From NCBI GenBank assembly GCA_029571215.1, contig JAKPTE010000001.1, forward strand, positions 42,684 to 106,683: a stretch of DNA of 64,000 nt, written 5' to 3'. Origin of the DNA: Bacteroidota bacterium (GTDB taxonomy: Bacteria > Bacteroidota > Bacteroidia > Bacteroidales > JAAYUG01). The notes beneath the pieces were generated by a model. It did no database searches, had not been told where the DNA came from, and was given only the letters and a program-made list of their open reading frames with translations. Made by a program: the position numbers and the translations under genes. The first letter of the stretch is position 1. Every line of letters starts with the position of its first letter. Below are positions 19,569-53,549 of this stretch, piece after piece.

Positions 19569-19850
19569 ATGAACATTTATATCAGAAACATCGATTTCAA
19601 GGTGACCGACCAGCAGTTGAACGATCTGTTTGCAACCTGCGGAGCGGTTCAGTCAGCAAAGGTAATCCGTGACAAGTTCACCGGCCGGAGCAAAGGATTT
19701 GGATTTGTTGAAATGCCGGATGATCAGGAGGCGGAAAAGGCTATTGCCAGCCTGAACGGATATGTTTTGAATAACAGGCCTATTGAAGTCTCTCAGGCCA
19801 GACCGAGAGAGGACAGAGGTAATTATTCAGATTCCGGACATCGACGCTAG
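19569..19850 (+). CDS. RRM-domain RNA-binding protein
   Basis: RNP2-like NIYIRNI and RNP1 SKGFGFVEM. Confidence 0.95.
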   Translation: MNIYIRNIDFKVTDQQLNDLFATCGAVQSAKVIRDKFTGRSKGFGFVEMPDDQEAEKAIASLNGYVLNNRPIEVSQARPREDRGNYSDSGHRR

Positions 19851-40107: not shown

Positions 40108-42027
40108 ATGGCTCATTATCCTTTACTGGAGAAGATTTTTTATCCGGATGATCTGAAAAAACTGAATTCTGAGGAGTTAATTCAGGTCTGCCATGAATTA
40201 CGTGAATTCATCATTGATATTGTCTGTGAGAATCCGGGACATCTTGGAGCCAATCTTGGGACTGTTGAATTAACGGTTGCTCTGCATTATGTTTTTGATG
40301 TACCTAATGACAAAATTATCTGGGATGTGGGGCATCAGGCATACGGACATAAGATTCTGACAGGAAGAAGGCAGGTTTTTCATACCAACCGCAAGTACGG
40401 GGGCATCAGTGGCTTTCCCAAGCGGGATGAAAGTCCGTATGATGTTTTTGGTACGGGGCATTCATCAACTTCCATTTCAGCTGCTTTGGGGATAGCCATG
40501 GGTCTCAGGTACAATAGCAGGGAAGAGTCCAACGTGATTGCTGTAATAGGAGATGGCAGTCTTACGGGGGGTATGGCTTTTGAAGGGTTGAACAACGCAG
40601 GTACTTTGCATCCCAACATGCTGGTTATTCTCAATGACAACAACATGTCAATTGATCCTAATGTGGGTGCCCTGAAAGATTACTTACTTGATATTACAAC
40701 CTCGAAAACTTACAACCGTTTTCGGGATGAAATATGGGATATGCTGGGGAAGCTGGGTCGTATGGCTCCGTTTGCCCGTCAGTATGTTCAAAAAATTGAA
40801 GCATCTCTGAAGGCTTTGTTTCTAAAGCAGAGCAATCTTTTCGAAGCGTTAAATTTCCGCTATTTCGGACCAGTTGACGGGCATGATGTTGTTCACCTTA
40901 CCGAGGTTTTGCAAGATTTAAAAGGGATAAAGGGGCCGAAACTCCTGCACGTTATCACGAAAAAAGGCAAAGGATTTCCAAGAGCCGAAGAGAACCAGAC
41001 GGCTTTTCATTCCCCCGGTCCGTTTGACCGGAAAACGGGTGAATTTCTATCAAGGAAAGTTACTGACACAGAACCTCCAAGGTACCAGGATGTTTTTGGT
41101 CATACGCTTCTTGAGCTGATGGAACAAAACAACAAAGTGATTGGTATTACGCCTGCTATGCCAACAGGTTGTTCTATGAATATAGCCATGGAACGTTACC
41201 CGGAACGTATTTACGATGTTGGCATAGCCGAACAGCATGCGGTCACGTTCGCTGCAGGATTGGCCACCCAGGGTCTAATTCCCTTTTGCAACATTTATTC
41301 CTCCTTCATGCAGAGGGCTTATGATCAGGTCATTCACGATGTTGCCATACAGAATCTTCCTGTAGTGTTGTGTCTTGATAGAGCCGGTCTCGTCGGAGAC
41401 GATGGTGCCACGCACCATGGAGCATTTGATCTGGCCTATTTACGCTGCATCCCCAATATGGTTGTTGCCGCCCCGATGGATGAAATTGAACTGCGGAATC
41501 TGATGTATACCGCACAGCTTCAACCAAAAGGTCCTTTTGCTATCCGATACCCAAGAGGGAAAGGAGTTCATACCAGCTGGCGGGAAACGTTTCAGGAAAT
41601 ACCGATAGGGAAGGGCAGGATTATCGAAGAAGCAGAAGGTCTTGCGGTACTGTCCCTGGGGCATCCGGGGAATTTTGTGCGGGAAGCTGCCCTGAAACTG
41701 TCGGAAGAAGTGATTCATTTTTCACATTATGATCTCCGTTTTCTTAAACCAATTGACAAGGAGCTTTTGCGTCATATATTTCAACGGCACAAACAAATTA
41801 TTACTGTTGAAGACGGTGTCCTTGCCGGAGGCTTCGGAAGCGCTGTTCTTGAATTTATGGCTGATGAAGGGTTTACAGCGCAAGTGGTACGGTTAGGAAT
41901 TCCTGACCGGTTTATTGAACACGGCACTCAGGACGAATTACGGCGGGAATGTGGATATGATACAGATAGTATTGCTGCAGTAATTAAAAAGATGCTTGTG
42001 GGAAAAATCCTGCAGAAAGTAAGCTGA
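40108..42027 (+). CDS. dxs: 1-deoxy-D-xylulose-5-phosphate synthase
   Basis: WDVGHQAY, GHSSTSISA, GDGSLTGG, DVGIAEQHA, DRAGLVG. Confidence 0.98.
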   Translation: MAHYPLLEKIFYPDDLKKLNSEELIQVCHELREFIIDIVCENPGHLGANLGTVELTVALHYVFDVPNDKIIWDVGHQAYGHKILTGRRQVFHTNRKYGGISGFPKRDESPYDVFGTGHSSTSISAALGIAMGLRYNSREESNVIAVIGDGSLTGGMAFEGLNNAGTLHPNMLVILNDNNMSIDPNVGALKDYLLDITTSKTYNRFRDEIWDMLGKLGRMAPFARQYVQKIEASLKALFLKQSNLFEALNFRYFGPVDGHDVVHLTEVLQDLKGIKGPKLLHVITKKGKGFPRAEENQTAFHSPGPFDRKTGEFLSRKVTDTEPPRYQDVFGHTLLELMEQNNKVIGITPAMPTGCSMNIAMERYPERIYDVGIAEQHAVTFAAGLATQGLIPFCNIYSSFMQRAYDQVIHDVAIQNLPVVLCLDRAGLVGDDGATHHGAFDLAYLRCIPNMVVAAPMDEIELRNLMYTAQLQPKGPFAIRYPRGKGVHTSWRETFQEIPIGKGRIIEEAEGLAVLSLGHPGNFVREAALKLSEEVIHFSHYDLRFLKPIDKELLRHIFQRHKQIITVEDGVLAGGFGSAVLEFMADEGFTAQVVRLGIPDRFIEHGTQDELRRECGYDTDSIAAVIKKMLVGKILQKVS

Positions 42028-42077
42028 CTCTTTTAAAAAAATTGTATTTTCGCACGCTCTGCGTTCTTTGCACAACT

Positions 42078-42160
42078 GCCCGGATGGCGGAACAGGTAGA
42101 CGCGCTGGTCTCAAAAACCAGTGGGATTTTCCCTTGCCGGTTCGATTCCGGCTCCGGGTA
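42078..42160 (+). tRNA. tRNA-Leu(CAA)
   Basis: Acceptor GCCCGGA/TCCGGGT; anticodon arm CTGGT-CTCAAAA-ACCAG; long variable arm; T arm GCCGG-TTCGATT-CCGGC; 3' CCA not encoded. Confidence 0.96.
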
Positions 42161-47139: not shown

Positions 47140-48744
47140 TCAGTAGCCTGTGTTCTGTTTAATGGATGGATTAGCATTCACTTCGGCAGTGGGAATCGGG
47201 AACAGCATCTTTCCAGCGGTTTGGTTATACCAGTCGCTGAATTTGAAATCGATACGTACACTGCTAAAATCATTATCACTGGCAGTCCAGTTGGCAAGGT
47301 TAATATAACCGGCGGCGTGCCAGCGTTTGAGGTCAAACCAACGTATACCCTCTTCAGCACAAAGTTCAAGAAGCCTTTCATCCATAATCCATTGCATAAT
47401 TGTGCTTTCATCGGTTTCCGAGACTGAACGGTCAGCAGGCACTGCCGAAGCTGGAGAAGCGCTATTGCGTGCACGTTCCCTGATTTGATTAATTAGAGCA
47501 ATGGCATCTGCTTTATTTCCTCCGGACTTAAGGATAGCTTCTGCTTTCAGAAGAAGGACATCGGCGTATCTCAGGATACGCGGATTGTCAATGGAGGAAG
47601 TAACATCTCCTTCTTTTCCTCTTTTGACATACTTGGCAAAGCCTATCTTGAGTGTGTCGGTGCCAAATACCATTGGAGGATAACGATAGGCATTGCCATT
47701 ATCCGGGGCTATTGTATCAAGAGTTTCGCTTATACGCGGGTCCCCCGCTTCGAATTTCATTAACAGTTTTTTGCTTGGCACAATGCACATATTATCCAGA
47801 TTCCACCAGCTCCAGGCTCCGTAAAAGAATCCCCAGTAAGAAGACATTGGGCCAATAGCAATATCGAAATCATTCCATAACCAGATATTTTCGAATGATG
47901 GAGCATTACTTGCCTGGAATTCAAAAAGAGATTCCTCATTGTTTTCATTATATGCATCAAAGTTGGCTCCAAAATCGGCTACGAGGTGGCGAGTGGTAAT
48001 TTTGTCGAAAGCTGTGATGGCAGCTGTATAATCTGTTGTATTTTTTGCATAGCATGCTCTGAAGACAAGAGCTTTTCCCAGCATTCCGTTTGCTGCATCC
48101 TTCGTAATTCTTCCAATCTGGTTTTCGGGATAACTCACAGGAAGAAGCTCAGCCGCCTCCTGAAAATCGGCTATTGCCTGATCAAGCAGTTGGGTACCTG
48201 TTGAAGAAGGAGGGTAAATGTCCTTGAGCGACGAGATTCTTTCAGTTATAACCGGTGCGGTTCCAAAGAAGTTATACAGGCCAAAAAATGCCCAGCCGCG
48301 AAGAAAAAGAGCTTCTCCTTTTATATTATCTTTCAATCCTGGAGTTTTAATAACACCGTTTTCCTCATTAATTTTCTGAAGAACTACGTTAGCGCGGTTA
48401 ATGAGCTGGTAAGCTGCAGTCCAGTACTGTCCCAGTAGCCCCTGACCAGGCTGCATTCCGGAGAAAGACTCAAAAGGGCTTGTTCCTGCTGTTGTAGCAT
48501 CGTCACCAGGTAACAGCCACATGGGATGCGTAGGGTTATTTGCATGGAAATAATAGAAATCGGTAAGTTTTGCATACACGCCGATAATTGCGCCCACAAA
48601 GTCTTCTTCTGACTGAAACATCATAGCCTCAGTTTCTGTGCCGGGTTTCAGATCGAGATGGGAGGGATCACAGCTGTGGATTATGGGGAGGGTCACTAAT
48701 CCTGCAGCCAGGGATAATATGATGAATATTTTTTTTGCTTTCAT
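47140..48744 (-). CDS. RagB/SusD family lipoprotein
   Basis: Lipobox IHSC; GEALFLRG, RYADVLLLKAEA, ERLLELCAEEG.RWFDLKR, QNTGY. Confidence 0.95.
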   Translation of the reverse strand: MKAKKIFIILSLAAGLVTLPIIHSCDPSHLDLKPGTETEAMMFQSEEDFVGAIIGVYAKLTDFYYFHANNPTHPMWLLPGDDATTAGTSPFESFSGMQPGQGLLGQYWTAAYQLINRANVVLQKINEENGVIKTPGLKDNIKGEALFLRGWAFFGLYNFFGTAPVITERISSLKDIYPPSSTGTQLLDQAIADFQEAAELLPVSYPENQIGRITKDAANGMLGKALVFRACYAKNTTDYTAAITAFDKITTRHLVADFGANFDAYNENNEESLFEFQASNAPSFENIWLWNDFDIAIGPMSSYWGFFYGAWSWWNLDNMCIVPSKKLLMKFEAGDPRISETLDTIAPDNGNAYRYPPMVFGTDTLKIGFAKYVKRGKEGDVTSSIDNPRILRYADVLLLKAEAILKSGGNKADAIALINQIRERARNSASPASAVPADRSVSETDESTIMQWIMDERLLELCAEEGIRWFDLKRWHAAGYINLANWTASDNDFSSVRIDFKFSDWYNQTAGKMLFPIPTAEVNANPSIKQNTGY

Positions 48745-48778: not shown

Positions 48779-51700
48779 TCAAAAGGTTGCCTTCAATCCA
48801 AAATTCAGAACCCTTGGGATCGGGTAATATTCGTTTTCGGGATCCAGCCCGGTCCATTTAGTAATGGTAAAGAGGTTGGAGCCGCCCACATAAATTCTCA
48901 GGCCCTGTGCCACCTTGATCATATCAAAAAACTTTTTGGGAATAGTGTATCCGAGTTCAAGATAAGCAAAGCGAAGGTAGCTTGCATTTTCCACCCAGCG
49001 GTCTGAAAAGCGGGTGTTGGCACCCGGGTCAGTTGCGGCTGCTCTTGGCATTTTGGTCGATTTATTGGTGGGAGTCCATCGGTCAAGCACATCGGTAAGC
49101 TGGTTTAAACCATTGCTTTGCATTCCGGTAAGGTGCCATTTAGGACCATTGATTTGCTGAATATCACCTACACCCTGAAAGTTGGCTGAAACATCGAAAC
49201 CTTTGTATGCCAGGTTTATACCAAATCCATAGAAGAACCCTGGAAGAGTGGAACCCAGGTAAACCCTGTCGTATTCATTCAACGTGCTGTCAGCACCTGG
49301 CGTATAAAAACGGTGGGTTTCATCGGGGGCTCCCCTCAGGTCTTTAAACCAGATATCGCCAGGATGCTGGTTGCTGGCAATAATATCAGTTACTTTTGAC
49401 TGGTAGTTGGCAACTTCCTGGTCATCCTGGAAAATGCCTCCCATTTTGTAACCCCACAGGTAGTTGATAGGATAACCTTCTTCTATTCGACCGCTTTCAC
49501 CACCCATAGGAATATGGTCGTACATTTTCACCACTTCGTTATGGTTGGTTGTCAGATTCCCAAATACAGAATACTGAAGATCACCAATATTCCCTCGATA
49601 ATTAAGAGCAATTTCCAGACCGGTGTTTTTTACTTGTGCGATATTGATAACTGGATTATTGAATGAACCTACGCTCGGAGCAATTGGGGTTTCCTGGAGA
49701 ATGCCATCGGTAAATTTGTGGTAATACTCAATGGTGATGTCAAGGCCTCCAAATAAAACTCCATCGAGAGCAAAGTTCGAGGTCGTTGTGGTTTCCCATT
49801 TCAGATCCTTGTTGGGGAAATCAGGGAAGTAGAAGCCAATGTTCATAATTCCCTCAGGATTCCCCAAAGCTGCGGTAGAACCAAGGGAATACTTTGCATT
49901 TCTGTTAATTTTTGAAAGGTATGGGAAGGCCTGCGTTTCCTGGTTCCCAAGCTGACCCCAGCCAACCCTTACTTTCAGATCATTCAGCCACGTGAGATTT
50001 TGCATAAAGGACTCGGCGGAAATACGCCATGCAGCCGAGAAAGATGGAAAGGTACCCCAACGGGTTTCTTTTGCAAACTTGGATGTTCCGTCACGGCGTA
50101 CTGTAGCGTCCAGATAATATTTGCTATTGTAATTGTAACTTACACGTCCCATATATCCCTGCAGCGCGCCTTTGTCATAACCAGTAAATCCATTGATGTA
50201 TTCCTGAGGGCCGCCAACACCCCGGTAATCTTTCCCTGCATTGGTAAGATACTCTGTAGAAGCGTCAGTATAATCAACCCGATAGCTTTGATCCATGGCA
50301 TTGAATATGAAGTCAAAATTATGGTTTCCAAAGCTTTTGGTGTACATTACCGCAAATTCTTTCACCAGGTTGAAATTTCTGACCTGTCTTTCCCCGTAGG
50401 AGCCTTTGGTATCATCAACTCCGTCTGCTGCAAGTGCAAGAGGGTCGCTGGGAGTAATATTGAAATAGGCGTCGTACATACCGGAAAAACTACGGCGAAG
50501 ATTGGCATACCAGTCAGCACTGATGGTTCCTTTGAAACGCAAGCCGGGCAAAGGTTCAAACTGCAGATATCCGGTACCCATGCTGCGCAGCAGAAGATAG
50601 TCCTGATCATTGTTCCACATAATGCCATACGGGTTCATATTGGTCGCCGGCCCCCAGAGTTTATTTGCAACAAAATCAGGAGTCCAGGAAAGGGCCATTG
50701 AGGGAGCATACCCACCGGGGCCGTTGGGATCATATATTGGTTGCCAGGGTGCTATTCCGGCCAGGGCATCAAGGTCCCCTCTGCCTCCGCCCCAACCTTG
50801 GTTGTCATACGACTTGGAATAGCTGGTGCGGAGATTTAACCCGGTGGTAAAGTATTTTGAAAGACGTCCGTCAAGGTTCGAAGTTATGGAATATCTGCGG
50901 ATGTTGTTATTAATGTATGGGCTTTCCGTGTAATTGTATCCTGCTCCGATAAAGTAATTAAAAGCTTCCTTTGCTCCGCTGATCTGCAGGTTGTAGTCCT
51001 GGGTGGGAGCATTTTTGTTCAGGAAAGGAGTTTGCCAGTCTGTAGAGGGTCTGCTTCCCAGATAAGACGGATCATTCGGATCGAATACACTGGGCATCTG
51101 GTCGGTAGCCTCCGGCACATTGGCATAAGCTTCTCTATACAGGGCAACATAATCCGGGACTTTCAGAACATCATATTTTTTAGGTATGTTCTGATAGCCT
51201 GATTTCATCGAAAATTCAACTCTCGCCTGCGCCGTCTTCCCCCGTTTCGTTGTAATAAGGATCACCCCATTGGAAGCCCTCACTCCATATATGGCTGCTG
51301 CTGATGCATCTTTCAGCACCGAAATGGATTCAATATCTTCCGGATTTATGAACGTCATGATATTGATGGGTGAGCGGAGGTCCTGGTTGCGGGGATCGGA
51401 ACCTTCGGCACCGGAGCCGAATTCTGTTATGGGCACACCATCAATTACATATAGAGGGGAAGCAACCTGCCAGGTGTTCATTCCGCGAATACGAATGGTT
51501 GGACGAGCTGTTGGAGTAGCGCCTCCTGATACTACCTGAACCCCTGCCATTCTCCCTTGCATTGCCAGTTCGGGAGTGACGGCATTCAGCTGCCGGATAT
51601 CTTCAGATGAGATGCTGGAGATGGCAGTTGTGACATCTTTTTTAGCACGCGAACCATATCCGATGACAACAATTTCTTCAAGTTCCTTTGCCTCCTCTTC

Positions 51701-52009
51701 TAGGGAGACTGAAATTGTTTTTCTTCCTTCCAATGGCACTTCCAAGGTTTTGAAACCTATAAAGGAAAAAACAAGGGTGGCGTTGGCATCAGAAACATTT
51801 AATGTAAAGACACCGTCGACATTGGTGGTAGTTCCAATGGTCGTTCCCTTGACAACAACATTTACTCCGGGCATGGGCGTATTATCGGTTTTTGAAGTAA
51901 CCGTTCCCGTGACCGGGATCTGAGCCATGGCTGCAGAGGCCGACAGAACCAGCCATAATAAAAGGGCAGCCACAGAGTACATCTGTTTCACCTGGGTTTT
52001 GTTTTTCAT
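48779..52009 (-). CDS. SusC/RagA TonB-dependent transporter
   Basis: CarboxypepD_reg-like N-terminus; VVIGYG; DIESISVLKDASAAAIYGVRASNGVILITTKRG; terminal ATF. Confidence 0.97.
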   Translation of the reverse strand: MKNKTQVKQMYSVAALLLWLVLSASAAMAQIPVTGTVTSKTDNTPMPGVNVVVKGTTIGTTTNVDGVFTLNVSDANATLVFSFIGFKTLEVPLEGRKTISVSLEEEAKELEEIVVIGYGSRAKKDVTTAISSISSEDIRQLNAVTPELAMQGRMAGVQVVSGGATPTARPTIRIRGMNTWQVASPLYVIDGVPITEFGSGAEGSDPRNQDLRSPINIMTFINPEDIESISVLKDASAAAIYGVRASNGVILITTKRGKTAQARVEFSMKSGYQNIPKKYDVLKVPDYVALYREAYANVPEATDQMPSVFDPNDPSYLGSRPSTDWQTPFLNKNAPTQDYNLQISGAKEAFNYFIGAGYNYTESPYINNNIRRYSITSNLDGRLSKYFTTGLNLRTSYSKSYDNQGWGGGRGDLDALAGIAPWQPIYDPNGPGGYAPSMALSWTPDFVANKLWGPATNMNPYGIMWNNDQDYLLLRSMGTGYLQFEPLPGLRFKGTISADWYANLRRSFSGMYDAYFNITPSDPLALAADGVDDTKGSYGERQVRNFNLVKEFAVMYTKSFGNHNFDFIFNAMDQSYRVDYTDASTEYLTNAGKDYRGVGGPQEYINGFTGYDKGALQGYMGRVSYNYNSKYYLDATVRRDGTSKFAKETRWGTFPSFSAAWRISAESFMQNLTWLNDLKVRVGWGQLGNQETQAFPYLSKINRNAKYSLGSTAALGNPEGIMNIGFYFPDFPNKDLKWETTTTSNFALDGVLFGGLDITIEYYHKFTDGILQETPIAPSVGSFNNPVINIAQVKNTGLEIALNYRGNIGDLQYSVFGNLTTNHNEVVKMYDHIPMGGESGRIEEGYPINYLWGYKMGGIFQDDQEVANYQSKVTDIIASNQHPGDIWFKDLRGAPDETHRFYTPGADSTLNEYDRVYLGSTLPGFFYGFGINLAYKGFDVSANFQGVGDIQQINGPKWHLTGMQSNGLNQLTDVLDRWTPTNKSTKMPRAAATDPGANTRFSDRWVENASYLRFAYLELGYTIPKKFFDMIKVAQGLRIYVGGSNLFTITKWTGLDPENEYYPIPRVLNFGLKATF

Positions 52010-52055
52010 AGTCAATCAGATTAGTTTAAGTTGGTTGGACGAAGGATTGCACAAT

Positions 52056-52091
52056 AAAAAAAGCCGCGTATGTATTATTTTACATACCGGC
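52056..52091 (-). terminator. Intrinsic terminator inside the susC leader (attenuator candidate)
   Basis: GCCGGTATGTA-AAATAA-TACATACGCGGC-TTTTTTT on the sense strand, 46 nt before the susC ATG. Confidence 0.75.
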
Positions 52092-52259
52092 CATAGTTCA
52101 TTTATGGTGGCATCATCATAGTTAGGTTGGTTGGTTTCATTCGGTGCCAATTGGTTGGTTCATTTGACACCAAAATCTGTTCGTAAAAATAGTAAAAAAA
52201 ATAAAAGATTAATTATGCAACAAAAAAAAAATACATATCATAAAAAATTAAAAAAATTT

Positions 52260-53549
52260 TCATCCTTTAGGATGCATAATTGATTCAATTTCATCCGGCA
52301 TCATTGGCAGGGAATCAGTAAGAACCTGATTGCCGTTTTGGGTTATTAGTAATGTATTCTCAATACGGATTCCGATGTTTTCCACGGGAATATAAATTCC
52401 AGGCTCGCAGGTCAATACCATTCCAGGTTCCAGCGGCAAGGTCTTTTCACCCGGGTCATGCACATCGAGTCCGAGAAAATGGGAAATGCCATGCGGAGAG
52501 TATCTTTTGGAAAGCGGCTCTGACGGATTTTGTGATGCGATGTCATTTTTTGTGTACAATCCAAGCTTCTGGTGTTCTTCTTCGATGAGAGGCCTGATTT
52601 CCTGTTCCACCTCTTCCATGCTTTTCCCGGGAAGAAGGCGCTTCGCACTTTCTTCATAGATTTTCAGAACGGAAAGGTACACTTCTTTTTGCCGGCCGGT
52701 AAAACGCCCGTCAACTGGAAAGGTTCGTGTGCAGTCGGAGGCATAATACCAAAATTCGGCACCGGCATCAATCAGCAGAAGGCTTCCTGCCTTGCAAATA
52801 TCCCTATTTTCGGTATAATGCAGGGTACATGCATTAGCACCTGAAGCGATAATAGGTGCAAAGGCCAGCCGGGCATTGTTAATAGTACATTCATGCAGGA
52901 ATTCCGCTTCCAGAAATTTCTCCGGTATATCCGGCCGGCATTTCTGTGCTATCCGTTTCATACCGGATACCGTTATTGCCGAAGCATGCCGGATCAGAGC
53001 AATTTCCCATTCTTCCTTTCGGAAGCGCATCTCCTGAATATACCGGGACACCTGCTCGTATTTGTGCAATGGGTACATTTCTCTGATCCGTTTCAACTCT
53101 CGCTGATTTTTTAGTGGAAATTCCACTTTTAACTTTGAAGATGTTGGAACATTAAACCAGAATGTTTCCGTAATTGCCGATACCTGTTGAAGAATTGTGT
53201 CCAGTTCCTCTGTATAGCGGATGGTATCAACTCCTGAAATTTCGATAGCTTCTGAAGGTGTAAGTTTTTTGCCATTCCATGCTTCATCTTTCGGATCGGG
53301 TTTTTCAATGAACAATATCTCCCGCATGGTTGTGTCACTGGCATGAGGTACCAGGAGGAGAATACTATTTTTTTGCTCGATTCCTGTCAGGTAATAGAAA
53401 TCCGAATTCTGACGGTAAGGATAAAACTGATCCCCGTTACGGAGCATCGAATCAGCTGAGAAAAGGATGATGGCTCCGTATTGCACCTTACGTGTCAACA
53501 GGAGGCGGTTTCTTATAAAGCAATTTCGATCGGGTGTGAGGCTTTCCAT
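52260..53549 (-). CDS. pepP: Xaa-Pro aminopeptidase (M24B), paralog 1
   Basis: YRQNSDFYYLTG, DAG..YASDCTRT, HFLGLDVHD, EPG, GIRIE. Confidence 0.9.
   Translation of the reverse strand: MESLTPDRNCFIRNRLLLTRKVQYGAIILFSADSMLRNGDQFYPYRQNSDFYYLTGIEQKNSILLLVPHASDTTMREILFIEKPDPKDEAWNGKKLTPSEAIEISGVDTIRYTEELDTILQQVSAITETFWFNVPTSSKLKVEFPLKNQRELKRIREMYPLHKYEQVSRYIQEMRFRKEEWEIALIRHASAITVSGMKRIAQKCRPDIPEKFLEAEFLHECTINNARLAFAPIIASGANACTLHYTENRDICKAGSLLLIDAGAEFWYYASDCTRTFPVDGRFTGRQKEVYLSVLKIYEESAKRLLPGKSMEEVEQEIRPLIEEEHQKLGLYTKNDIASQNPSEPLSKRYSPHGISHFLGLDVHDPGEKTLPLEPGMVLTCEPGIYIPVENIGIRIENTLLITQNGNQVLTDSLPMMPDEIESIMHPKG

Follow-up and report, generated by a model that had tools for sequence, protein, structure and literature searches.

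A conserved susC leader in an uncultured Bacteroidota lineage, with possible sRNA docking sites upstream of an intrinsic terminator

Introduction

SusC/SusD transporters are the nutrient uptake route of Bacteroidota, and to our knowledge their post-transcriptional control has been described only for the FopS sRNAs and the protein RbpB of one gut species. We also know of no Hfq in this phylum. Among enterobacteria, the chbBC intergenic region reportedly traps the sRNA ChiX, and SroC is said to sponge GcvB. Leader-peptide attenuators include trpL and hisL of Escherichia coli, the proline-codon leaders mgtL and mgtP of Salmonella, and the Bacteroid-trp motif of Rfam. In Bacteroides thetaiotaomicron, translation of SusC is repressed by FopS sRNAs that base-pair close to the start codon, an effect counteracted by RbpB (PMC11697453). 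In the same species, sRNAs derived from 5′ UTRs by premature termination are a reported class, and long 5′ UTRs contain short, unvalidated ORFs resembling attenuation leader peptides (PMC7366714).

Here, we analyzed the spacer between pepP and a susCD pair in a 64,000-nt stretch of the Bacteroidota bacterium assembly GCA_029571215.1 (hereafter, the window). A first-pass annotation of this stretch had described the spacer as a leader with three mini-ORFs, repeats, and a terminator, and had proposed a ribosome-relay attenuator. We compared the leader with those of four metagenomic relatives (L036, L037, L038, and L039) and searched the genome for RNAs that might pair with it. The reading that we favor, at a probability of roughly 0.4, is that of a leader targeted by FopS-like sRNAs, with two extra sites placed before the terminator, possibly as decoys. 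The leader suggests that the logic of FopS control also arose in an uncultured wastewater/digester lineage, with unrelated-looking GGUUAG-repeat sRNAs and possibly with an added layer, namely, extra target-site copies placed 5′ of a terminator. If right, this would provide a compact example of target mimicry where no Hfq is known, together with a simple sequence rule for sRNA targets.

Results and Discussion

Conservation and architecture of the leader

On its minus strand, the window carries pepP (52260..53549; Xaa-Pro aminopeptidase, M24; Pfam Peptidase_M24, 3.2e-49, and AMP_N, 3.4e-32), followed by a gene for a susC-like TonB-dependent transporter (48779..52009; 1076 aa from the ATG at 52009; Pfam CarbopepD_reg_2, Plug, and TonB_dep_Rec_b-barrel) and, as the second of the pair, a gene for a susD-like lipoprotein (47140..48744; Pfam SusD_RagB, 1.6e-34, and SusD-like_3). 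The pepP gene also adjoins susC in L036 and L038, where it lies upstream with 76–77% amino acid identity (tblastn). The pepP–susC spacer was 72–75% identical to those of the relatives, compared with 39–51% identity at four-fold degenerate sites (39–40% in susC, 153 sites, and 51% in pepP, 140–144 sites, against L036 and L038); the spacer is thus under selection. The 201-nt leader folded at −41.3 kcal/mol (z = −3.55), a value reached by none of 200 shuffled sequences. The elements kept in all five leaders were a 5′ hairpin (hairpin 1), three accessible CCAACC boxes, the 12-mer ATGCCACCATAA, the terminator, and the susC start region. The spacer is a conserved, selected, and structured leader with a real intrinsic terminator directly 5′ of susC. 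The hairpin, mini-ORFs, terminator, and repeats of the first-pass annotation were all recovered on the minus strand at the positions given here.

The AT-rich spacer next to pepP (52180..52259) probably contains the promoter of the leader. Its best −7-like boxes were TATTTTTA (52191-52184) and AGATTTTG (52178-52171), neither of which is an exact TAnnTTTG, and the blocks TTTTTTATGAYAT and TTTTTTTGTTGCAWAATTWATCTTTT were common to the window and its relatives. Hairpin 1 (52140..52174) has an 11-bp stem including two G-U pairs, with the arms TTTGGTGTCAA and TTGGCACCGAA, and a 13-nt loop, ATGAACCAACCAA, which displays box 1 (AACCAACCAA, 52151..52160). This hairpin was found in the MFE structure of every leader, and its loop sequence ATGAACCAACC was unchanged in all five; in the RNAalifold consensus, one of nine stem pairs showed a double-sided change (A-U to U-A) and one was broken in the window. 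Box 2 (AACCAACCAACCTAACTA, 52119..52136) lies in a single-stranded linker, and its core ACCAACCTAAC (52131-52121) was invariant across the five leaders. Box 3 (CCAACCAACT, 52038-52029) belongs to the susC translation start region (52010..52039), whose score of 5.6 corresponds to the 99.6th percentile of random ATGs. The boxes are G-free, occupy the same three places in all five leaders, and are invariant or nearly so. The predicted unpaired probabilities were 0.79–0.87 (mean) for box 1, 0.94–0.96 for box 2, and 0.89–0.99 for box 3 with the susC start region. The octamer CCAACCAA occurs three times in the leader (52158-52151, 52134-52127, and 52038-52031), as had been claimed; its 49 copies on both strands of the 2.13-Mb assembly correspond to approximately 0.0015 expected per 130 nt of one strand. 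The likewise reported triplicate ACTATG was confirmed in the window (52122-52117, 52097-52092, and 52012-52007) and was found in none of the four relatives.

The intrinsic terminator (52056..52091) comprises an 11-pair stem whose 3′ arm has a single bulged G (52091-52063), followed by a T7 tract (52062-52056) that ends 46 nt 5′ of the susC ATG (52009-52007). It was kept in all five leaders with compensatory changes; among 13 aligned pairs, one showed a double-sided change, two showed one-sided changes, and two were broken in the window, and the T tract of the relatives was interrupted (TGTTTTC). A simple terminator scan missed this hairpin, and the sole site that it listed was a weak one over the pepP stop (52274-52261). 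Regarding expression, the RNA libraries were available as assembled contigs, which carry no start, end, or strand information. These covered 51833-52008 (X17), 51849-52030 (X18), and 52377-52642 (X16), and the stretch 52031-52106 lay outside all of them (three short contigs from three runs). Contigs of a further library that probably represents DNA (X15) covered 52107-52256 and 52330-52479.

sRNA-like genes and their complementarity to the leader

The genome to which the window belongs (G000) contained at least seven sRNA-like loci, at C15:14443, C24:27562, C26:49729, C27:68832, C29:2337, C39:25129, and C44:2436, as well as an eighth at C27:110594. These genes share a G/U-rich 5′ part with GGUUAG/GGUUGG repeats, predicted to be weakly or little folded, followed by a strong terminal hairpin and a U run. 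The pattern GGTTAG-N2-6-GGTTAG gave 10, 12, and 11 matches in three genomes of the genus, compared with 2, 0, and 2 in the backwards-read controls, and 0–4 matches each in 36 genomes of other families. At orthologous loci of two sister species (G001 and G002), the seed was nearly letter-identical and a TTTTTG box lay upstream, while the terminator loop and upper stem differed and the stem itself was kept. These putative sRNA partners of the AACC/CCAACC repeats had escaped the first-pass annotation because their genes lie on other contigs.

The leader and these seeds are extensively complementary. Perfect complements reached 10–12 nt at the susC start region and elsewhere in the leader: a 12-mer in the C29 sRNA is exactly complementary to the invariant AACCAACCTAAC, a stretch in the C15 sRNA to CCAACCTAACTA, and one in the C44 sRNA to CCAACCAACT. 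Box 2 has 12-nt perfect complements in the sRNA-like genes at both C29 and C15, and box 1 is complementary to seeds over at least 9 nt without mismatch. Complementarity of at least 9 nt covered 38 nt in the window, 35 nt in L036, and 31 nt in L037, in each case at the three boxes. When predicted duplexes were ranked over 1358 start regions for five sRNAs, three of them placed the susC start region near the top, at rank 1 (C26, −37.0 kcal/mol), 2 (C29, −33.6 kcal/mol), and 8 (C44).

Part of the sRNA set had been found via the complement of the leader motif, which makes its use circular. With seeds taken from G001 or G002 only, which possess the sRNA-like genes but not this leader, the leader ranked first of 696 and 806 windows, respectively, with 9-mers and first of 2263 and 2461 windows with 8-mers. 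With seeds of C24, C27, and C39 only, which contain GGUUAG and little GGUUGG, the leader fell outside the 404 windows above the listing threshold for 8-mers and ranked 258 of 2260 with 7-mers. Genome-wide, complementary 8-mers were enriched 2.1-fold upstream of starts, compared with 1.2-fold in the backwards control, and G-poor, C/A-rich start regions were generic in this genome. SusC-like genes as a class were not significantly enriched among the predicted targets (n = 16, Mann-Whitney p = 0.07–0.45).

The locus resembles the FopS/RbpB/SusC system of B. thetaiotaomicron in having sRNAs in several copies, each with an unpaired 5′ seed and a Rho-independent terminator (both predicted here), in the predicted seed complementarity to the susC start region, and in the RRM-1 protein encoded in both genomes (PMC11697453). 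In the window, this protein is a 93-aa single-RRM protein (19569..19850, plus strand; PF00076, 83.8 bits), the sole RRM_1 protein found in the assembly and a possible counterpart of Bacteroides RbpB. The published FopS probe, written as the target-like strand, resembles the susC start region by eye, and a search of G000 with the probe sequence returned no FopS homolog. Unlike FopS (RF04319), the sRNAs here consist of GGUUAG/GGUUGG repeats, the best match to the FopS model in G000 reached 29.3 bits against a gathering threshold of 56, and the sRNAs are enriched only in this genus; four of the loci gave no sRNA family match in Rfam at E ≤ 1. FopS targets, in the published account, have one site near the start codon, whereas the leader here has three predicted sites, two of them upstream of the terminator.

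Judged on sequence, pairing sites for a multicopy G/U-rich sRNA family account for the CCAACC repeats better than parts of a relay do. The spacer would be transcribed as the 5′ leader of the susCD operon, in which the three boxes could pair with genus-specific multicopy sRNAs. By analogy with FopS and SusC of B. thetaiotaomicron, translation would be blocked by pairing at box 3, which extends into the susC start codon. Boxes 1 and 2 are conserved copies of the target site outside the start region that are predicted to be unpaired, and since they precede the conserved terminator, both the truncated leader RNA (approximately 110–160 nt) and the full-length transcripts would carry two extra target copies. 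These copies might titrate the repressor sRNAs as decoys or provide auxiliary docking sites, while partial termination would set the share of transcription that reaches susC. The conservation of hairpin 1 and of ATGCCACCATAA is left over by sRNA docking.

Alternative explanations

The closest competitor, which we regard as unlikely, involves no regulatory link: the hairpin and T tract would end pepP or a separate small transcript, susC would have its own promoter overlapping or just following the terminator, and the boxes would reflect the G-poor composition of start regions, locally duplicated. In line with this, CCAACCAA stands just 5′ of the ATG in five other genes for large signal-peptide or membrane proteins. 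Moreover, 11 of the 34 terminators found by a crude scan were located <60 nt from the next start; closeness is thus common and by itself no proof of read-through control. A 5/6 match to a −7 box, AATTTTTG, directly follows the terminator in L036 and L039, but it is not kept in the window (ATCCTTCG) or in L037 and L038 (AATTTTTA). As a point for the favored reading, the 20 nt between the terminator and the susC start region are the least conserved part of the leader, which leaves no conserved promoter box there, and an exact TAnnTTTG was absent between the terminator and susC in the window, as previously reported. Against the rival explanation, the spacer as a whole, with the 120 nt from the AT-rich region to the terminator included, far exceeds four-fold degenerate sites in conservation, which a plain 3′ UTR would not need. 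The three boxes are accessible and kept in fixed places in all lineages, and the leader is the top genome-wide cluster of sRNA complementarity.

A stronger form of the sRNA docking proposal, which we consider unlikely, holds that the promoter-proximal 110–160 nt released at the terminator are a dedicated sponge of the genus-specific, FopS-like sRNAs. The protective 5′ hairpin would present one target mimic in its loop and the linker would present the second, so that activation of the locus would first neutralize the sRNAs that repress it and possibly those that act on other outer-membrane transporters. Like the enterobacterial decoys, such an RNA would be an mRNA-borne target copy that comes from the regulated locus and lifts the repression of a function in the outer membrane or in uptake. 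Those decoys are found in Proteobacteria and work via Hfq and RNase E, whereas here an intrinsic terminator would release the putative decoy as a 5′ leader. If true, no sRNA sponge and no cis-encoded target mimic would have been described in Bacteroidota before this one. The putative RNA would also resemble the 5′ UTR-derived sRNAs of B. thetaiotaomicron, which are promoter-proximal RNAs that share the mRNA start and end ahead of the coding region, at a terminator or a drop in coverage (PMC7366714).

The first-pass annotation had proposed a ribosome-relay attenuator with three head-to-tail mini-ORFs, sensing methionine, proline, or the state of translation, or else a riboswitch or RBP switch. 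Comparison of the five leaders did not support the three-ORF relay. For uORF1 (MNQPIGTE, 52137..52163), the start and first seven codons were kept, while the stop shifted between leaders to give 8, 13, or 7 codons; its ATG lies inside the hairpin loop, and the scores of its start region were 2.2 (window) and 5.2 (relatives). In uORF2 (MKPTNLTMMMPP, 52140-52102), which has an ATGA overlap with uORF1, the upstream ATG was present in three of five leaders and the MMM run in the window only, whereas the last three codons and stop, encoded by ATGCCACCATAA (52102..52113), were invariant in all five. The third, uORF3 (MNYGRYVK, 52075..52101), joined by a TAAATG junction, was limited to the window: it was absent from L036, L037, and L039, and L038 has the L037 sequence in this stretch. 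Apart from the beginning of uORF1, M-P-P-stop is the conserved part of the mini-ORFs, which on the favored reading would mostly be incidental. The case also shows that leader mini-ORFs noticed in one sequence should be checked by comparison before an attenuator is called from them. An antisense ORF of 63–68 aa in the relatives was rejected as a gene, as stops interrupt the copy in the window.

A reduced form of the attenuator appears improbable. In this form, translation of M-P-P-stop, and perhaps of uORF1, would decide the outcome at the terminator 10–11 nt downstream, so that a pepP-linked peptide-uptake locus would respond to proline supply, EF-P, or general translation capacity. It shares with known leader-peptide attenuators a short ORF, Pro codons, and a terminator just before the gene, which lies between leader ORF and gene in all five leaders. 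Pro-Pro and Pro-stop slow ribosomes, the neighboring pepP product cleaves Xaa-Pro bonds, ATGCCACCATAA follows a C/A-rich start region like that of susC, and the spacing between ATGCCACCATAA and the terminator stem is constant within 1 nt among the five leaders. The leader copy is the sole intergenic one among 12 M-P-P-stop copies in the genome (approximately 10 expected). A predicted alternative, pairing of the mini-ORF with the 5′ terminator arm (−9.2 kcal/mol), is limited to the window; in the relatives, ATGCCACCATAA lies inside a hairpin of its own (CUUAUG-CCAC-CAUAAG), from which it is excluded in the window, and no antiterminator was common to the three lineages. A ribosome at the stop codon would, from geometry, reach approximately 52092, the base of the stem, and so would not melt it. 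In addition, the start region of the conserved three-codon ORF scored just 0.7–1.0 (approximately the 36th percentile of gene starts), and two Pro codons are few for a sensor. The absence of a recognizable riboswitch class, noted previously, also held: an Rfam 15 scan of 51500-52800 at E ≤ 10 returned six matches of 9–20 bits against gathering thresholds of 44–95, all to unrelated families and none to a leader family.

Rho classically loads on C-rich, G-poor, and unstructured RNA. A protein that binds the C/A-rich boxes and controls termination or translation, be it the single-RRM protein, ribosomal protein S1, or Rho, is the least probable alternative. In its favor, the boxes are G-free and predicted to be unpaired, an RRM_1 gene lies in the window, and RbpB binds a susC 5′ UTR directly in B. 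thetaiotaomicron (PMC11697453). Against it, these proteins have no known binding motif (the main text of PMC11697453 never uses that term), sequence alone does not tell protein binding from sRNA pairing, and complements of sRNA seeds that are exact over 12 nt would have to be put down to coincidence.

Searches for further copies of the leader

Outside the five leaders, no comparable element was detected in the following searches. BLAST of the 251-nt spacer against its own genome returned only itself, the other 20 matches having E > 1, and a 701-nt query against 40 relatives gave coding or T-rich matches without a leader homolog. A search of 301 genomes of the order with the SusC protein yielded seven at E ≤ 1e-150, including its own (best identity, 53%), and none in the three other family genomes searched. 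By eye, the regions upstream of more distant SusC relatives (≤57% N-terminal identity) and of 16 other CarbopepD_reg genes of G000 contained no comparable leader. A covariance model of the leader, searched against 60 relatives, recovered its own copy only; a 36-bit match in G021 was dismissed as two generic hairpins without boxes or 12-mer. A look-alike, CCAACCAATTGTATGGCACC, before ruvA (G000:C29:46180) was attributed to chance, with no Rfam match and a fold z of +0.63. Hairpin 1 was also considered as an operator and rejected, as the assembly contains no second copy comparable to its GGTGTC...GGCACC palindrome. The other matches to this pattern in the assembly were one terminator hairpin and two more.

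The susC locus and its relatives

The leader (52010..52180, minus strand) lies in the 250-nt spacer between pepP (53549-52260, minus), encoding an M24 Xaa-Pro aminopeptidase, and the gene of a susC-like TonB-dependent transporter (1076 aa; ATG at 52009, minus). The locus includes a susD-like gene (48744-47140, minus), convergent genes lie past susC/susD, and no regulator of the sigma/anti-sigma or hybrid two-component type was found adjoining the pair. The assembly holding the window (2.13 Mb, 48 contigs, 76% complete, 45% G+C) showed A enrichment at -14 to -11 before the starts of its 1361 long ORFs and no Shine-Dalgarno signal upstream of them; this start-site pattern, like the gene content, is indicative of Bacteroidota. 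The DNA runs containing the stretch were metagenomes of biofilm, anaerobic digester, and activated sludge.

No second copy of the spacer was found in this assembly, no spacer DNA match in 40 relatives, and no close SusC homologue in the three other family genomes searched; the best SusC match among 300 genomes of the order had 53% identity. Four metagenome contigs (L036-L039) encoded SusC and PepP with 92-93% and 76-77% identity, respectively, with pepP upstream there too. Because leader homologues were found only in these contigs, which fall into the lineages L036/L039 and L037/L038, the comparative evidence comprises three lineages, the window included. The next SusC relatives had 48% identity, no comparable leader was seen by eye upstream of the more distant ones, and a leader covariance model retrieved only its own copy from 61 genomes. 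A 36-bit match of this model elsewhere was rejected, as it had no conserved sequence block.

Constraint on the leader

All leader features listed in the first-pass annotation were found where it had placed them. Folding of the leader was stronger than in 200 of 200 shuffles (z = -3.55), and CCAACCAA occurred three times within 130 nt, far above its genome rate (49 copies in 2.13 Mb, both strands counted). The hairpin at 52091-52056 was not picked up by a simple terminator scan, whose only call here was a weak site overlapping the pepP stop codon. There, a weak 5-bp hairpin (52261-52274, minus) is followed by AAAATTTTTTT; it could be a weak terminator of pepP itself, and the relatives carry a similar TTCC/GGAA hairpin.

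When the window was compared with L036 or L038, identity at four-fold degenerate sites was 39-40% for susC (153 sites) and 51% for pepP (140-144 sites), as against 72-75% across the spacer, so that constraint is well above the neutral expectation and the leader is functional by this test. The invariant blocks were both arms of hairpin 1 (52140..52174), its loop ATGAACCAACC, the linker ACCAACCTAAC, ATGCCACCATAA, the base of the terminator (52056..52091), and CAACCAACT and CTAATCTGATT before the susC ATG. Conservation was lowest in the 20 nt from the T tract to the start region, and thus no conserved promoter box lies between the terminator and the start region; the window has ATCCTTCG there, the L036/L039 lineage AATTTTTG, and the L037/L038 lineage AATTTTTA. 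Covariation in homologous leaders, a check suggested in the first-pass annotation, was present as pair-preserving changes in both structures: one pair of hairpin 1 was kept through an A-U to U-A exchange, and in the terminator one was kept by two-sided changes and two by a one-sided change. RNAalifold also paired the U tract (GUUUUCAUU, 52053-52062, minus) with an A-rich stretch that follows hairpin 1 (AAUGAAAAC, 52136-52144, minus). This is a perfect 9-bp match in L037 and L038 but a weaker one in the window and L036; as modelled, such pairing might give a terminated leader RNA a more stable 3' end.

A family of sRNA-like genes

The motif CCAACCAA also stands at most 25 nt before the ATG of five other genes for large signal-peptide or membrane proteins, and other susC-like genes have related start regions (ACTAAC/TAAACC). 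Among its intergenic complements were loci in which G/U-rich GGUUAG/GGUUGG repeats precede a strong terminator. A composition-based scan gave five such loci and the trivial antisense of the leader, a pattern search gave two further ones (on contigs C24 and C39), and the eighth was a sub-threshold match of the Rfam FopS model. All eight lie outside the window in the same assembly, at C15:14443-14527 (+), C24:27562-27455 (-), C26:49729-49615 (-), C27:68832-68917 (+), C27:110594-110668 (+), C29:2337-2421 (+), C39:25129-25222 (+), and C44:2436-2520 (+); two adjoin tRNA genes. They had no Rfam match, none passing the threshold of the FopS model. In all seven loci that were folded, the 5' part was little or weakly folded and a terminal hairpin preceded a U run.

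Matches to the pattern GGTTAG-N2-6-GGTTAG numbered 10, 12, and 11 across the three genomes from this genus (2, 0, and 2 in backwards-read controls). Two further genera in the family had 4 and 0, and 36 genomes of other families had 0-4 each. At orthologous loci in two sister-species genomes (G001 and G002), the seeds were nearly unchanged, an upstream TTTTTG box was common, and the terminator hairpin varied in its loop and upper stem while the stem was kept. Judged from sequence, these loci look like genuine sRNA genes. Tandem tRNA genes (C33:~41900-42100, minus) have the seed motif GUUGGUUAG as their D-loop sequence, which is why tRNA-gene antisense strands scored as top 'targets'; the likeness may be a coincidence or a hint at the origin of the family.

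According to one report, Bacteroides thetaiotaomicron has 14 FopS sRNAs, each with a single-stranded 5' seed and a terminator, whose pairing near the start codon represses SusC translation and is counteracted by the RRM protein RbpB (PMC11697453). The window encodes a 93-aa single-RRM protein (19569-19850, +), the only RRM_1 match in the assembly and of the kind that acts with FopS in Bacteroides.

Complementarity between the leader and the sRNA-like genes

Three CCAACC boxes of the leader matched the seeds. Box 1, in the hairpin-1 loop (52151..52160), had complementary stretches of at least 9 nt; box 2, in the linker (52119..52136), was exactly complementary over 12 nt to the seeds of C29 and of C15; and box 3, in the susC start region (52038-52029), had a 10-nt complement of the C44 seed. 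By predicted duplexes, the susC start region ranked 1st (C26), 2nd (C29), 8th (C44), 43rd (C15), and 77th (C27) among 1358 start regions, and a 60-nt stretch around box 2 would come 4th with three of the sRNAs. Perfect 9-mers covered 38 nt of the leader in three blocks, the first rank in the genome with sRNA-gene antisense strands set aside. Since some sRNAs had originally been found via the leader motif, the count was redone with seeds from G001 or G002 only, and the leader again ranked first (of 696 and 806 windows with 9-mers, and of 2263 and 2461 with 8-mers, respectively). In L036 and L037, the three blocks kept their positions and covered 35 and 31 nt, respectively. With the C24, C27, and C39 seeds only, the leader was not among the 404 windows at the 8-mer listing threshold and ranked 258 of 2260 with 7-mers; the complementarity signal rests on the GGUUGG-bearing members.

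Genome-wide, complementary 8-mers before starts were only 2.1-fold enriched (1.2-fold in the control), and enrichment of the 16 SusC-like genes as a class among predicted targets was not significant (p = 0.07-0.45). The top windows included a second susC-like start region (gene C4:58961-62248). In G001 and G002, the sRNAs were present and the susC leader was not found. Among the best predicted targets was also a repetitive 331-aa ORF (C38:8858-9853, +) that starts MITMTTLTTPPTLTT and has CCAACCCTGACAACCCCG repeats in front; it may not be a real gene.

We assign a probability of roughly 0.4 to the best-supported reading, in which the susC leader is an sRNA target as in the FopS system and carries two additional target-like boxes, conserved and accessible, before a conserved terminator. 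Boxes 1-3 were predicted to be unpaired (0.79-0.99), and the M-P-P-stop 12-mer (52102..52113) and the terminator arm were not. With box 2 unpaired and the terminator arm fully paired, we see no structural route by which sRNA pairing would switch the terminator, and on this model we would favour a role as decoys or auxiliary sites over control of termination by sRNAs. That the two upstream boxes are decoys in particular seems rather unlikely. Decoys of this sort are known from enterobacteria (chbBC-ChiX and SroC-GcvB). A full-text literature search for an RNA sponge of Bacteroides SusC gave no such system among the matches listed, and the terms 'sponge', 'decoy', 'attenuat', and 'leader' were all absent from the main text of a 2026 gut sRNA review (PMC13750123). 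Closeness of a terminator to a start is common here (11 of 34 terminators less than 60 nt from the next start in a crude scan).

Leader ORFs

The first-pass annotation had proposed an attenuator in which ribosomes relay over three uORFs, which is not supported by uORF conservation, start-region scores, alternative pairing, ribosome geometry, or M-P-P-stop counts. uORF3 was present only in the window, the upstream ATG of uORF2 was missing in L036 and L039, and uORF1 kept its ATG and seven codons with a length of 8, 13, or 7 codons across leaders; the ACTATG repeats and the MMM run were absent from L036-L039, leaving only M-P-P-stop, the 3' end of uORF2, common to all five leaders. With a weight matrix trained on the 1361 long ORFs, the susC ATG scored 5.6 (99.6th percentile of random ATGs), whereas the mini-ORF ATGs scored only 0.7-1.0. 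When the leader was folded up to the terminator loop, pairing of the mini-ORF with the terminator 5' arm (-9.2 kcal/mol) was confined to the window; the 12-mer of the relatives formed a hairpin by itself (CUUAUG-CCAC-CAUAAG). A ribosome with the stop codon in its A site would have its leading edge at ~52092, the stem base, and would abut the hairpin without melting it. M-P-P-stop occurred 12 times genome-wide (about 10 expected), the leader copy being the sole intergenic one. Reading the leader as sRNA-targeted leaves the conservation of the invariant 12-mer unexplained, and a minimal sensor built on M-P-P-stop, which would draw on that conservation, is an unlikely alternative without a mechanism. 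Leaders that involve proline codons include mgtL and mgtP. In Bacteroides, leader-peptide-like short ORFs are mentioned as unvalidated in one paper (PMC7366714).

SusC genes on other contigs

In a metagenome contig from another sample (L040:1-1286), susC was 100% identical from codon 34 on, and in place of the leader it was preceded by an IS3-type transposase, present as two overlapping frames on the strand opposite susC; either an insertion into the susC 5' end or an assembly join would account for this arrangement. In four distant SusC relatives (L030, L032, L034, and L035), the frames were open for ~100 codons upstream of the part aligned with the SusC of the window, which suggests an N-terminal signalling extension that the latter lacks.
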